Positions 1-15,502 of a stretch of 53,213 nt of DNA are shown here, piece after piece. The first letter of the stretch is position 1. Every line of letters starts with the position of its first letter. A model generated the notes under the pieces. The model saw only the letters and a list, made by a program, of their open reading frames with translations, made no database searches and was not told the DNA's origin. A program made the translations under genes and the position numbers. Source of the DNA: Sphingomicrobium sp. (GTDB taxonomy: Bacteria; Pseudomonadota; Alphaproteobacteria; Sphingomonadales; Sphingomonadaceae); NCBI GenBank assembly GCA_039920065.1, contig JBDSEL010000019.1, forward strand, positions 1-53,213. Direction: 5' to 3'.

Positions 1-16
1 CGAGCGGGCTCGCCAT
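1..16 (-). CDS. rpsB: 5' end (partial) of probable 30S ribosomal protein S2
   Basis: ATG at 16 reads MASPL(V) after a GGAAGGAG SD. It has a structured leader, and psd-pssA-rpsB is the usual sphingomonad order. Only 5 codons are visible. Confidence 0.6.
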
Positions 17-108
17 AAGACTTCTCCTTCCGGTTTCTTCCTCGACGGAGCCATGTACCAGCCGTTGGCTGGAACCGGTTTATGTCAGCTCCGTCTGCGG
101 GATGCGCG
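17..108 (-). promoter_or_regulatory. Structured 5' leader, probably the rpsB (S2) autoregulatory leader
   Basis: Nested inverted repeats GACGGAGC (44-51)/GCTCCGTC (88-95) and CCAGCC (58-63)/GGCTGG (67-72) lie between the promoter and the SD. Confidence 0.55.
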
Positions 109-110
109 GG

Positions 111-139
111 CCACTAGCCCAAGCCCGCCGCTATTTCAA
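111..139 (-). promoter_or_regulatory. sigma70-type promoter of rpsB
   Basis: Minus strand TTGAAA-N17-TAGTGG, with GC immediately before the -10. Confidence 0.6.
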
Positions 140-167
140 GGGCTTGGCGGGGTCGGAATAGCAGGAC

Positions 168-196
168 TTGACAACCAAGAACAAAGCATGAACATT
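168..196 (+). promoter_or_regulatory. sigma70 promoter overlapped by an alphaproteobacterial LexA (SOS) box
   Basis: TTGACA (168-173)-N17-AACATT (191-196). GAAC-AAAGCAT-GAAC at 179-193 is GAAC-N7-GAAC, the reverse complement of GTTC-N7-GTTC. Confidence 0.75.
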
Positions 197-228
197 GCCA
201 TCTCCAGCACCGGCGATCGTGCGGTTTT

Positions 229-253
229 GGAACGAAACGGGTCCATGGCTGTT
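229..253 (+). promoter_or_regulatory. EcfG (general stress sigma)-type promoter
   Basis: GGAAC (229-233)-N17-GTT (251-253), just upstream of the AAGGA SD of the ORF at 280. Confidence 0.55.
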
Positions 254-279
254 TAGCCGTCAAAGAAGGACATCATGCA

Positions 280-507
280 ATGACTGCAGCGCTTGGCACT
301 CTCGCTTTCCTGACCACCGTGTGGATGCTCGTCGTCGTTACCGCGATGGTCCTTGAGCAGAGCGGCGGGAAAATTCTCGCCGCCCTTAAGGGCCATGTGG
401 CCGTTGCACCCGTCCGTTCAGCTACGATCCGGATTCGCTATGGGTCGCACTCGGCTCGGGCAGCTCAGCCGATCCGCGCTACCGCCAGGCTGCGCGCCGC
501 TGCTTGA
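280..507 (+). CDS. Small hypothetical membrane protein (75 aa), candidate SOS/stress-induced
   Basis: AAGAAGGA SD 9 nt before the ATG; N-terminal hydrophobic helix; basic tail ending LRAAA; LexA box and EcfG-type promoter upstream. Confidence 0.7.
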   Translation: MTAALGTLAFLTTVWMLVVVTAMVLEQSGGKILAALKGHVAVAPVRSATIRIRYGSHSARAAQPIRATARLRAAA

Positions 508-1237
508 CCCGCGCGTAGGACATCAGGCTGAAGGGCACGGTCGCAAGGTAGATCAGCGACACCGCCAATAGAGTGATCCACGGTTCGTTGAACAAGGCCG
601 CGCCCAATAACGCCACGCCGGCAAGTCCGAACAGCCGCCACCCGCGGCGGATGCGGATCGACGACCAGCTGTAGGTCGGCAGGCTCGAGATCATCAGCAC
701 CGCGACGAACAACGTCCACGGCATGACCACAATCCAGCTTCGAAACCATTCATTCCCGCTGATCAGCCACAGGAAGATCGGCACGAACGCGACCCCTGCC
801 CCCGCTGGCGCCGGGACCCCGGTATTGAAGCCGGCCGACTTGTGCGGCTGGTGATCCGAATCGATCCGCGCATTGAACCGCGCCAGCCGCAGTGCGCAAC
901 AGACCGCTAGCGCAAGCGCGACCGTCCAGCCGAACTTGGGCGCATATTGCAGCGACCACAGATAGAGGATCACTGCGGGCACCGTCCCGAAGGCGATATT
1001 GTCGCTCAGCGAATCGAGTTCGGCACCGAATTTGCTTTCGGCGCGCAGGAGCCGCGCGATCCGACCGTCCATGGCATCGAGGACCCCAGCGATGACGATC
1101 GACGCCAGTGCCAGCTCCCATTGCTCGCCAATCGCGAAGCGCACCGCCGACAGCCCGAAGCACAAGGCCATGGCCGTGACGGCATTGGGCAGGAAAGCGC
1201 GAAACGCGATGCCGCGCCCCTCGCGCGCCTCTATCAC
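479..1237 (-). CDS. pssA: CDP-diacylglycerol--serine O-phosphatidyltransferase
   Basis: CDP-alcohol phosphatidyltransferase motif DAMDGRIARLL..S.FGAELDSLSD; coupled to psd by a GTGA overlap. Confidence 0.93.
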   Translation of the reverse strand: MIEAREGRGIAFRAFLPNAVTAMALCFGLSAVRFAIGEQWELALASIVIAGVLDAMDGRIARLLRAESKFGAELDSLSDNIAFGTVPAVILYLWSLQYAPKFGWTVALALAVCCALRLARFNARIDSDHQPHKSAGFNTGVPAPAGAGVAFVPIFLWLISGNEWFRSWIVVMPWTLFVAVLMISSLPTYSWSSIRIRRGWRLFGLAGVALLGAALFNEPWITLLAVSLIYLATVPFSLMSYARVKQRRAAWR

Positions 1238-11995: not shown

Positions 11996-14900
11996 TCAGC
12001 TGACCAGCGCCAACCGAGCGGGCTCCTGCGCGCTCAATGTCGCGCTGCCCTCACCCGTGATGCGTTCGATCCGCGCGGCGATTTCAGCGTCGAGCAGGAA
12101 ATCGCGGCCGGCCACCAATGCCGCTTCGCCGCCCGTCGCCAGTCCAATCACCAGCCGGACGAGTCCGTTGCCGCCGCGCACGCCGTCGAGTTCGCGCGCG
12201 ATGGCCGGGATCAACGCGTCGTCCGCGACCCGGATCTCTAGTTGCAGGCGAGTTCGCTTGGCGAGCGTGTCGAGGGGCTGGAACCGTTTGACGGTCACTC
12301 GCGGCATGTCGTCGCCGACGCGCTTGTCGAGTTCGACCGACAACAGGCCGCAGCCCTGCCCGCCCGCCGCCGCTTCGAGCGCCGCAGTCGCCTCGTCGTC
12401 GAACGCCATGGCCCCGAACTGGCCGCTCGAATCGCTGAGGTCGGCCATCAGATAGCGACGGCCTCGCGCCGAGGTTCGCCACCGCGTGCCCTCGACCAGC
12501 GCGGCCATGGTTGCAGTCGCCCTTGTGCCCTCGGCGATGCGAATATCTCCCAGCTCGCCATAAGTCTTGACCCCGTTGACCGCGAGCAGATGGCGATGCG
12601 CCTCGACCGGGTGTGCTGCGAAATAGAAACCGAAGCTATCGCGTTCGGCCGCCATGCGCTGCGCCATCGACCATTCCGCTCCCCTGGGCAGGCGGATCGC
12701 GACGATATCGGCGCTGCCGCTGCCGCCGAACAGCGCGGCCTGGCCGGTGGTCCGCTGGTCGAACGCGCTGGCGGCATGGGCCAGGATTGTCTCGGCCCCG
12801 GCATAAACTGCGGCGCGGTCGGCCCTCAGGCCATCGAACGCGCCGGCCCCCGCCAGGCTTTCGATCTGGCGGCGGTTGAGCCACTTGGGATCGATCCGCG
12901 CAGTGAAGTCTTCCAGGCTGGCGAATTCTCCTTTGGCCTCGCGCTCGGCGACGATGCACTCCATCGCCTTGTCGCCGACCCCCTTCAATGCGCCGAGCGC
13001 ATAGCGGACCGCTCCATCTTCGACCGCGAAACGGGCCAGGCCATGGTTGATATCGGGCGGCAGGCAATCGATCCCGCCGCGCCGCATGTCCTCGACGAAC
13101 AGGGCGAGCTTGTCGGTCTGGGCCAGATCGAAACTCATCGAGGCGGCGGTGAATTCGGGCCGGTGATGCGCCTTCAGCCACGCGGTTTGATAGGCGATCA
13201 GTGCATAGCCGGCGGCATGGCTCTTGTTGAACCCATAGCCGGCGAACTTGTCGATCAAGTCGAACAATTCGGTCGCCTTGGCCTCGCCGATGGCGTTGAG
13301 CGCGCAGCCGTCGACGAAGCGAGCGCGTTGGGCATCCATCTCGCTTTGGATTTTCTTGCCCATCGCTCGGCGCAGCAAATCGGCATCGCCAAGGCTGTAC
13401 CCGGCCAGCACCCGGGCCGCTTCCATGACTTGTTCCTGATAGACGAAGATGCCGTAGGTCTCGCCCAGCACTTCCTCCAACAGCGGATGCGGGTAGGCGA
13501 TGGCCTGGCGCCCATTCTTGCGGTCGCCGAACAGCGGGATATTGTCCATCGGGCCGGGGCGGTAGAGCGAGACGAGCGCGATGATATCTTCGAACTTGGT
13601 CGGGCGCACCGCCGCGAGCGTCCGCCGCATGCCTTCGGATTCAAGCTGGAACACGCCGACCGTGTCGCCGCGCTGGAGAATCTCGAACACCGCCGGATCG
13701 TCCCACGGCAATTTCTCGAAATCGATCACGATGCCCTGCTCGACAAGGAGGCGCTGGCATTCCTTGAGCACCGACAGGGTCTTGAGGCCGAGGAAATCGA
13801 ACTTCACCAGCCCCGCAGCCTCGACATATTTCATGTCGAATTGAGTCACCGGCATGTCCGAACGCGGGTCGCGGTAGAGTGGGACCAGCTCGTCCAGCGG
13901 GCGGTCGGCGATGACCACTCCGGCGGCGTGGGTCGAGGCGTGCCGCGGCAGTCCCTCGAGCTTCATCGCCAAATCGAATAGGCGTGTGACGTCGGCATCG
14001 CCCTGATATTCGCGGCGCAGTTCAGGCACGCCCTCGAGCGCGCGATCGAGCGTCCACGGATCGGTCGGGTGATTGGGGATGAGCTTGGCCAGCCGATCGA
14101 CCTGGCCATAACTCATCTGCAGCACTCGACCGACGTCCTTGAGGACCGCGCGTGCCTTCAATCGCCCAAAGGTGATGATCTGTGCGACCCGGTCGCGGCC
14201 ATATTTAGCCTGGACGTAGGAAATGACCTTGTCGCGATGAGTTTCGCAGAAATCGATGTCGAAATCAGGCATTGAAACACGTTCGGGGTTGAGAAACCGC
14301 TCGAACAACAGCCCGAGCGCGAGCGGATCGAGGTCGGTGATGGTCAGCGCCCAGGCGACCACGCTGCCGGCGCCCGATCCGCGCCCGGGTCCGACCGGAA
14401 TGTCACCCGCCTTGGCCCATTTGATGAAGTCGGCGACGATCAGGAAATAGCCCGCGAAGCCCATGTTGACGATCACGTCGAGCTCGAACTCGAGCCGCTC
14501 GGCATAGGCTGCGCGCTCTTCGGCGGGACGTTCGCTTAGTCGCAGGTCAAGGCCCGCCTGGGCGTCGCGGCGTAGCGCCTCGTCCTCGTCCTCGCCCATG
14601 CGCGGCAGGATCGGCCGCCGCGACGGCGCCGCGACGGCACAGCGCTGGGCGATGACCGACGTATTGTCGAGCGCCTCGGGAATGTCGGCAAAGATTTCGG
14701 CCATCATCGACCCGGTCTTGAGCCAGGCATCGGCCGAGGAGGTCACCCGCTCGCCGCTTTCGACGAAGGCCGAATTGGCGATGCACAGCAACGCGTCGTG
14801 GGCGGCGTGGAAATTGGGCTCGCCGTAGGACACCGGGTTGGTCGCCACCAGCGGAATACCGCGATCCATCGCAAGCTCGATCAAGCCCGGCTCGGCGGCC

Positions 14901-15442
14901 TCCTCGACCGGATCGTGGCGACGGCTAAGCTCGATATAGAGGCGATCAGGGAACAGTGTTTGGAGCGCATCGCAATAGGCTTCGGCCTTGGCTGGCTGGC
15001 CCTCGTCGAGCAACCGCGCGATCGCCCCCTCGCTGCCCGCCGTCAGTGCGATCAGGCCATCGGTGCGCCCGTTGAGCGCCGCGAAGCCGACATGCGGCTC
15101 CTCCGCCACCGGTCGGTCGAGATGTGCCGAGGATACCAATTTGCACAGATTGTCGTAGCCGGCTTCGTCCTTGGCCAGCAGCACCAGCCAGTCGTAGCTC
15201 TGCCCACCGTGGCATTCGGCCGGGCGCGACACCGCCAACATCGCGCCGATGATCGGTTGCACGCCCTTTTTGAAACAAGCGTCGCCAAACGGCATGGCGC
15301 CATAGAGACCGTTGCGGTCGCAAATGGCGACGGCGGGGAAGCCCAGTCCGGCGGCGCGGTCGGGGATTTCCTTGGGCTCGATCGCGCCTTCGAGCATGGT
15401 GAAGGACGAGAATACGCGCAGCGGGACGAAGGGCCGGGTCAC
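11996..15442 (-). CDS. dnaE: DNA polymerase III alpha subunit
   Basis: PHP domain, GPGRGSGAGS, NPERVSMPDFDIDF, KFDFLGLKTL, FAGYGFNKSH; GTG start at VTRPFVPL. Confidence 0.98.
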   Translation of the reverse strand: MTRPFVPLRVFSSFTMLEGAIEPKEIPDRAAGLGFPAVAICDRNGLYGAMPFGDACFKKGVQPIIGAMLAVSRPAECHGGQSYDWLVLLAKDEAGYDNLCKLVSSAHLDRPVAEEPHVGFAALNGRTDGLIALTAGSEGAIARLLDEGQPAKAEAYCDALQTLFPDRLYIELSRRHDPVEEAAEPGLIELAMDRGIPLVATNPVSYGEPNFHAAHDALLCIANSAFVESGERVTSSADAWLKTGSMMAEIFADIPEALDNTSVIAQRCAVAAPSRRPILPRMGEDEDEALRRDAQAGLDLRLSERPAEERAAYAERLEFELDVIVNMGFAGYFLIVADFIKWAKAGDIPVGPGRGSGAGSVVAWALTITDLDPLALGLLFERFLNPERVSMPDFDIDFCETHRDKVISYVQAKYGRDRVAQIITFGRLKARAVLKDVGRVLQMSYGQVDRLAKLIPNHPTDPWTLDRALEGVPELRREYQGDADVTRLFDLAMKLEGLPRHASTHAAGVVIADRPLDELVPLYRDPRSDMPVTQFDMKYVEAAGLVKFDFLGLKTLSVLKECQRLLVEQGIVIDFEKLPWDDPAVFEILQRGDTVGVFQLESEGMRRTLAAVRPTKFEDIIALVSLYRPGPMDNIPLFGDRKNGRQAIAYPHPLLEEVLGETYGIFVYQEQVMEAARVLAGYSLGDADLLRRAMGKKIQSEMDAQRARFVDGCALNAIGEAKATELFDLIDKFAGYGFNKSHAAGYALIAYQTAWLKAHHRPEFTAASMSFDLAQTDKLALFVEDMRRGGIDCLPPDINHGLARFAVEDGAVRYALGALKGVGDKAMECIVAEREAKGEFASLEDFTARIDPKWLNRRQIESLAGAGAFDGLRADRAAVYAGAETILAHAASAFDQRTTGQAALFGGSGSADIVAIRLPRGAEWSMAQRMAAERDSFGFYFAAHPVEAHRHLLAVNGVKTYGELGDIRIAEGTRATATMAALVEGTRWRTSARGRRYLMADLSDSSGQFGAMAFDDEATAALEAAAGGQGCGLLSVELDKRVGDDMPRVTVKRFQPLDTLAKRTRLQLEIRVADDALIPAIARELDGVRGGNGLVRLVIGLATGGEAALVAGRDFLLDAEIAARIERITGEGSATLSAQEPARLALVS

Positions 15443-15502
15443 GCCCGCGACTATGCGGCGTCGCCTGCCCGCGCGCAAAGACTAAGCCTTACTTATCCCC
15501 AT

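Follow-up and report, generated by a model that had tools for sequence, protein, structure and literature searches.

A LexA-boxed small membrane protein gene between rpsB and pssA, a candidate SOS division inhibitor of the sphingomonads

We found that the short open reading frame (ORF) lying between rpsB and pssA in a Sphingomicrobium genome is a real, conserved and previously unnamed sphingomonad gene for a membrane protein. By analogy with known systems we lean, with slightly better than even confidence, towards a product that would be an SOS-induced, ClpXP-degraded inhibitor of late cell division, inserted with its N terminus out and its C terminus in. In the window, which is the whole 53,213-nt stretch of DNA that was analysed, the gene and the elements around it are arranged as follows:

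1-145, minus strand: rpsB promoter, leader and first codons (ATG at 16-14; the contig end cuts the gene), divergent from the small gene
168-173, plus strand: TTGACA, the -35 element of small-gene promoter P1, sigma-70-type as read from the sequence
179-193, plus strand: LexA-type operator GAAC-AAAGCAT-GAAC, overlying the P1 spacer and the start of the -10
191-196, plus strand: AACATT, inferred putative -10 of P1, 17 nt past TTGACA; non-consensus, three of six matches
229-253, plus strand: EcfG-type promoter P2, GGAAC-N17-GTT, at -51 to the small-gene start; optional in the family
266-270, plus strand: Shine-Dalgarno sequence AAGGA, 9 nt ahead of the ATG
280-507, plus strand: the small gene, 75 codons, single-pass membrane protein; ATG at 280, stop at 505-507
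298-354, plus strand: transmembrane helix, residues 7-25; predicted to extend to about residue 36 with an amphipathic pattern
479-1237, minus strand: pssA (CDP-alcohol phosphatidyltransferase), PF01066; the TIGR00473 match is below cut-off
499-507, plus strand: C-terminal Ala-Ala and stop, a likely ClpXP degron, encoded inside the pssA overlap

Every element that a first-pass annotation had listed here (TTGACA, GAAC-N7-GAAC, GGAAC-N17-GTT, the Shine-Dalgarno sequence, the 75-aa ORF and its RAAA end) was recovered at exactly the same position. The promoter that it had placed beneath the box is borne out in its TTGACA -35 and its perfect box, but less so in its -10, which departs from consensus, and a sigma-70 scan made no call.

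The small gene and pssA are convergent, their 3′ ends overlapping by 29 nt (479-507) with no terminator seen between them, and psd lies beyond pssA. The resulting order, rpsB / small gene / pssA / psd, recurs in Sphingomonas melonis and Porphyrobacter, as their published gene tables show. Neither the pssA overlap nor the back-to-back placement with the rpsB leader figures in the first-pass annotation. On the other side, the rpsB leader and start match those ahead of rpsB in eight genus loci, and TTGAAA-N17-TAGTGG on the minus strand is a putative rpsB promoter. The rpsB 5′ leader (window 1-120, minus strand) is conserved genus-wide and possibly forms an S2 autoregulatory structure, with no Rfam match; an Rfam scan of window 1-600 was empty. 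A two-codon frame, ATG-CAA-TGA (275-283), runs across the true start and has similar counterparts in three genus loci and in one of 85 family loci; it is probably incidental.

A protein search matched 20 of 41 genomes, namely this genome, 19 of 24 from the genus and none of 16 from other families. Two further weak matches (L021 and L022) are other genes and are left out of the 20; among the 20, row L014 (G020) comes from an unpublished genome, and no conclusion rests on it. Downstream of the 20 matched loci pssA is found in 19, and upstream rpsB is found in 17, the remainder stopping at contig edges. Over codons 2-38, which lie outside the pssA overlap, pS is 0.52 versus a pN of 0.25 (91 pairs, 14 genus loci), and the identity by codon position is 0.70, 0.80 and 0.53. 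By this comparison the small ORF is under purifying selection as a protein.

Because the protein diverges fast, with single-protein and genus-profile searches reaching only 10 of 200 family genomes, its range was surveyed by synteny. We matched pssA in 195 of the 200 family genomes and examined the flank in 89. At 85 of these 89 loci a small ORF with an N-terminal hydrophobic helix faces pssA; together with the excess of pS over pN, this upholds the first-pass proposal of an uncharacterised small membrane protein as both real and conserved. The counterparts are 52-111 aa long, with a median of 78 (85 loci; a few starts are uncertain). In the other four of the 89 genomes the counterpart sits 3-5 kb from rpsB, away from pssA, and no counterpart was found in four genomes of two family genera.

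Outside the family, a profile search gave three weak matches in 49 genomes, none with a LexA box, and among 27 pssA loci of sister families a single one had a LexA-boxed hydrophobic ORF, about 1.1 kb off. This ORF (L322, genome G025) encodes 60 aa with an N-terminal hydrophobic helix and an AAE end, lies about 1.1 kb past pssA and may be a distant counterpart. The divergent unit at rpsB was seen in none of 40 flanks from other alphaproteobacterial families (40 of the 120 listed).

In the databases we found 64 close relatives and, at the level of 50% identity, 271 representatives, any names among them being "hypothetical". Neither Pfam nor NCBIfam has a family that covers the window protein, and no single entry was matched by more than one of 86 members. 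Furthermore, Foldseek against the PDB gave no match for the small protein, and only unnamed clusters scored 0.9 or above in the ESM Atlas. A literature search, with subscription papers outside its scope, found no study of the small gene, and no phenotype, target or DNA-damage experiment for any counterpart.

The most hydrophobic 19-residue stretch of the protein is residues 7-25 (Kyte-Doolittle 2.25); past residue 26 there are nine K/R and no D/E, and the protein ends in RAAA. AlphaFold2 predicts one helix, residues 2-36, followed by an unstructured tail (mean pLDDT 79.8). Among the 85 counterparts, 83 have no K/R within the first eight residues and 83 have a net positive tail. Read by the positive-inside rule, this charge pattern predicts an N-out, C-in topology with a cytoplasmic basic tail. 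The membrane helix keeps its hydrophobicity with few identities (20% mean column identity, compared with 74% for FtsW) and is almost without a charged or polar face. The cytoplasmic helix (residues 26-38, with an I32/A35/L36 face) equals the membrane helix in its degree of conservation. Modelling of residues 1-45 from a genus counterpart together with FtsW of the same genome scored 0.00, with controls not folded, and weighs neither for nor against an interaction.

A perfect GAAC-N7-GAAC box lies ahead of 83 of the 85 family ORFs, compared with a mean of 1.0 in shuffles, and the remaining two have one mismatch. Such boxes are rare in the genome, with 30 perfect instances on both strands of the 1.72-Mb assembly and about 0.001 expected per 112-nt stretch. 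The promoter context is kept as well: TTGAC starts 9-12 nt before 66 family boxes, a TTG-type word stands directly upstream in 73 of the 83 boxed loci, TTGAC and box occur together in 19 of the 20 genus loci, and the A and the T 3′ of the box are retained in 65 and 47 of 67 family boxes, respectively. The operators are sometimes doubled among the family loci. This genome encodes lexA, over the model cut-off, and carries a box of the same type before its lexA, recA and imuA-like genes. The alphaproteobacterial LexA operator consensus is GTTC-N7-GTTC, in agreement with Caulobacter (PMC12700426). The first-pass assignment of GAAC-N7-GAAC as a LexA-type operator is thereby supported on both counts, family-wide co-conservation and occurrence of the same motif at lexA and recA. 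Furthermore, box and ORF are found together in seven loci without rpsB in the fetched stretch and in four loci where pssA is not adjacent. Because the two stay together when either neighbour is not adjacent, the box belongs to the small gene. Motif and position together suggest that LexA represses P1.

Five more AT-rich perfect LexA boxes (G000 C147:7319, C62:6495, C110:2375, C17:1606 and C25:9310) lie before or near genes labelled by sequence appearance as radical-SAM-like, VOC-like and radA-like, among others; these genes are candidate members of the SOS regulon of this genome.

Published expression data are available for the Porphyrobacter ULC335 counterpart KVF90_09800, which lies between pssA and rpsB and is transcribed (baseMean 3633; PMC10674011). 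It shifts by -0.85 and +1.46 in two of four mutant-versus-wild-type comparisons, the other two having no value; in the same two comparisons recA shifts by -1.31 and +1.57 and lexA by -0.91 and +0.73 (PMC10674011). It also falls in the same temporal cluster as recA and lexA, along with recN, ruvA, uvrB and a Y-family polymerase (PMC10674011). This co-variation is modest support for SOS control, because the cluster is large (at least 180 rows) and mixed and also holds pssA (PMC10674011).

The C terminus is conserved as well. Ala-Ala ends 77 of the 85 counterparts and Val-Ala another four, against a genome background of 61 AA ends among 1927 long open frames (3.2%); a low-GC counterpart (L255) lacks the Ala-Ala end. 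At 78 of the 85 loci the small gene overlaps pssA in the same frame, and in these 78 overlaps AGG is the pssA arginine codon under the stop and the last alanine in every one of 45 cases, compared with 21 of 330 elsewhere in pssA. The next pssA arginine is CGG in 66 of 69 cases and never CGC, a codon that would encode glycine in the small gene and that is used in 143 of 330 cases elsewhere. Five copies that stop short of pssA end in AA (four) or VA (one), and all four relocated copies end in AA. The pssA codon choice and the nine non-overlapping copies (eight AA, one VA) show that the Ala-Ala that the first-pass annotation had pointed out is selected for itself. Terminal Ala-Ala is the main recognition element of ClpXP (PMC7652416), and the end of the small protein is likely a ClpXP degron. 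The spacing of the two stop codons varies, but we rejected this as a sign of independence from pssA, the ORF stop being fixed against the Y-x-x-V-K/R-R motif of pssA.

P2 is present in only part of the family. In the 1.72-Mb assembly GGAAC-N17-GTT occurs 31 times on both strands, about 0.001 being expected per 112-nt stretch, and the motif is found at -48 to -53 in 15 of the 20 genus loci; three other genus loci lack the whole segment between the box and the ribosome site. Across the family the N17 form is present in 19 of 81 loci and the N17-18 form in 30 of 81, compared with 0.16 and 0.36 in shuffles; the spacer lengths peak sharply, and the loci carrying the motif are scattered across an rpsB tree. 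The genome has nepR, itself with a promoter of the GGAAC-N17-GTT form. The small-gene motif matches published EcfG motifs (PMC6599016, PMC7083833). In S. melonis, the counterpart Sphme2DRAFT_3336, between rpsB and pssA, has an EcfG motif 49 nt upstream, yet the published RNA-seq lists it as not EcfG-regulated: its dependence on ecfG is log2 -0.22 (FDR 0.42) and -0.48 (FDR 0.064), and under a stress mix it rises by 0.69 in wild type and by 0.44 without ecfG. For this reason P2 is probably a minor input, conserved but optional, that adds a weak general-stress signal in some lineages, this one included. Accordingly, of the dual LexA and EcfG control proposed in the first pass, the EcfG motif is real, but its restriction to 19-30 of 81 family loci and the S. 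melonis record weaken its part in the control; likewise, the box, the hydrophobic helix and the Ala-Ala are co-conserved across the family whereas the EcfG motif is not.

We also found DnaA-box-like 9-mers. Counted by the DnaA-box consensus, 18 of 85 loci have an exact word no more than 130 nt from the start and 32 of 85 have one with at most one mismatch, compared with 0.03 and 1.7 in shuffles. They mostly lie 40-60 nt upstream and are often fused to the GTT of P2. In a quick, weakly supported tree 26 of the 32 loci fall in one 35-row subtree, and they represent a few events rather than 32, because kin are not independent. None of the 20 genus loci, the copy in the window included, has such a 9-mer. 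In L065, L074, L076, L084, L101 and L116, among others, and also in L258, L259 and L262, the 9-mers upstream of the counterpart often come in twos or threes at a spacing of about 11 nt, fused to or just past the EcfG -10. TCCAC-containing words are present in a few sidA promoters (L192, L180 and L186), a hint of recurrent DnaA input to SOS division inhibitors. CtrA sites (TTAA-N7-TTAA) were found in none of the 85 family loci, and GANTC is not enriched there (43 versus 45 in shuffles).

The small gene shows the anatomy of the SidA-like functional class, with a LexA operator that overlies the promoter and one membrane-spanning helix in the product. Like the small protein, SidA of Caulobacter crescentus is a small, LexA-boxed alphaproteobacterial inner-membrane protein, with a similar TTGAC and GAAC-N7-GAAC promoter layout and a chromosomal gene that is single-copy in the genomes examined. 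SidA differs, however, in being about 29 aa long, basic before the helix, with invariant S13/V18/W19 and without a cytoplasmic tail or Ala-Ala degron, whereas the small protein has a median of 78 aa, the reverse charge pattern and no sequence homology. The SidA model NF033228 matched neither the window protein nor any of 86 family members, and hhalign of the small-protein family against a 28-row SidA alignment gave a probability of 0.1%. By these comparisons the small gene is not a SidA homologue.

The position of the two genes differs as well, SidA being encoded directly upstream of dnaE and the small gene between rpsB and pssA. In another family all 30 of 30 SidA-like ORFs examined lie before dnaE, and for 17 of them a perfect box stands at most 90 nt away. 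The dnaE of the window (11996-15478), ahead of which we saw neither a box nor a small ORF, shares its strand with rpsB and is 11.5 kb distant from it; elsewhere in the alphaproteobacteria dnaE starts within about 5 kb of rpsB in 28 of 40 loci. We examined 28 loci of the order, including 23 from sister families, and found no SidA-like unit at dnaE in any. An origin of the small gene as an inverted sidA was considered and rejected, there being no homology and no box at dnaE in these 28 loci. LexA-boxed membrane ORFs of 35-43 aa are found upstream of dnaE in three other alphaproteobacterial families (L132:4131-4235, L163:3955-4062 and L139); two of them were scanned and did not match NF033228, and they are possibly distant SidA forms.

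SidA was over cut-off in none of 101 family genomes, with a positive Caulobacter control. A functional analogue of SidA is plausible because no SidA homologue was found in the family, and the small protein may work like SidA. The absence of SidA alone demands no replacement, because the sister-family loci examined had no SidA-like unit at dnaE and almost never the small gene.

Other known systems offer further points of comparison. Sda of Bacillus subtilis, an unstable checkpoint protein of small size, is said to have both DnaA and LexA sites in its promoter, a combination that resembles the one-third of the family with DnaA-box-like 9-mers; it is a soluble inhibitor of a sporulation kinase, with no relation to the small protein. 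TisB of Escherichia coli is an SOS membrane peptide and, like DinQ of the same species, is LexA-repressed and single-pass; both are much shorter and are controlled by antisense RNA, whereas the Rfam scan of window 1-600 identified no such RNA at the small gene. DinQ is a toxic SOS single-pass peptide (PMC3567139). DidA of C. crescentus inhibits division as a single-pass protein of 71 aa, and its ORF overlaps a neighbouring frame (PMC4211646); by description it resembles the small protein in size, in its single pass and in the overlap. Unlike the LexA-boxed small gene, it is SOS-independent and DriD-driven, and no Pfam or NCBIfam match of the window protein or of family members was named DidA. 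YneA of B. subtilis, SosA of Staphylococcus aureus and ChiZ of Mycobacterium are SOS-induced small bitopic proteins that block late division, and proteolysis of YneA allows division to restart (PMC13396833). YneA carries a LysM domain on the outside, and the proteases that cut it, CtpA and DdcP, reside in the membrane, in contrast to the unstructured, predicted cytoplasmic basic tail and the ClpXP-type end of the small protein. More generally, the SOS division inhibitors found in several phyla are small membrane proteins without relation to one another that act on late division, on FtsW or FtsN, and their usual form is an unstable single-pass microprotein under tight repression (PMC4211646, PMC13396833).

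By analogy, a block of late division is the likely action of the small protein. In undamaged cells LexA at 179-193 would block sigma-70 polymerase at P1, and upon DNA damage RecA-driven LexA cleavage would open P1. The basic tail would lie in the cytoplasm, within reach of ClpX, while the helix, like SidA, DidA and YneA, would target the septal peptidoglycan synthase complex FtsW/FtsI/FtsN. The septum-building step would be delayed until ClpXP removed the protein via its Ala-Ala, upon which division would resume. Several observations speak against the division reading: the identity of the helix is loose for a specific interface with a protein as conserved as FtsW, the protein has no sequence link to SidA and the opposite charge pattern, the counterpart L255 lacks the Ala-Ala end, and the Porphyrobacter cluster is large and mixed.

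The same anatomy can be read in other ways. Since it would suit any small-protein regulator, whatever its target, the protein might be an SOS regulator of a different membrane protein, such as an efflux pump, a protease, the elongation machinery or a competence apparatus; the well-kept cytoplasmic helix 26-38 fits such a role, but the degron, the sometimes doubled operators and the DnaA-box-like sites suggest a harmful, cell-cycle-timed product, and we regard this reading as unlikely. A harmful product could also be a growth-arrest peptide that acts on the membrane itself, by depolarisation or energy drain in the manner of DinQ and TisB, and whose action is ended by proteolysis instead of an antitoxin RNA. 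LexA control, the degron and a single hydrophobic helix with low residue-level conservation are all consistent with it, yet pore-forming type I toxins usually have a charged or polar helix face, which is almost missing here, and a protein of 70-110 residues with a long basic tail is a poor fit, so that we consider such a peptide quite unlikely.

The remaining alternatives start from the neighbouring genes. The convergent same-frame overlap with pssA at 78 of 85 loci and the lack of a terminator between the two genes would suit a role in tuning phospholipid synthesis, either by binding of the protein to PssA or Psd or by a transcript that runs antisense into pssA-psd and damps its expression. 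In Porphyrobacter, pssA counts do move with the small gene, but upwards and not downwards, a pattern that fits reads shared by the two genes (the strandedness of the library is not stated). Furthermore, the gene survives apart from pssA with box and degron intact, and the overlap locks the two genes together regardless of function; we judge a lipid role decidedly improbable. Improbable in the extreme, and largely refuted, is the reading that takes the ORF for an antisense shadow of pssA, or that assigns the box to the divergent rpsB promoter. It draws on the overlap of the last codons with the basic tail of pssA and on the distance of about 40 nt between the rpsB promoter and the box. Against a shadow stand a pN well below pS outside the overlap and the rare pssA codons exactly beneath the stop and Ala-Ala; against service to rpsB stands the joint occurrence of box and ORF away from rpsB and from pssA.

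An extension of the division reading deserves mention, although we hold it to be rather unlikely: a checkpoint with three inputs, in which a fast-evolving, ClpXP-degraded microprotein would be controlled by LexA nearly always, by EcfG in about a third of the family and by DnaA. Its DnaA part draws on DnaA-box-like sites that abut the EcfG -10, mainly in one large subclade. That such a build would be sphingomonad-family-wide, and not found elsewhere in our searches, is likewise a tentative proposition. Were it true, damage to the chromosome, stress on the cell or a lack of DnaA engagement would each suffice to hold division.

Our literature search found no SOS division inhibitor for the sphingomonads, and the small gene provides one concrete, family-wide candidate, with counterparts in the model strains at Sphme2DRAFT_3336 and KVF90_09800. 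It would also offer a clean case of a likely degron that is written antisense to a lipid-synthesis gene and visibly bends the codon use of pssA. If the division reading is true, the sphingomonads would have evolved an SOS checkpoint independently, one with a built-in cytoplasmic off-switch, absent from SidA, and with a promoter that in some lineages may also read general stress and DnaA.
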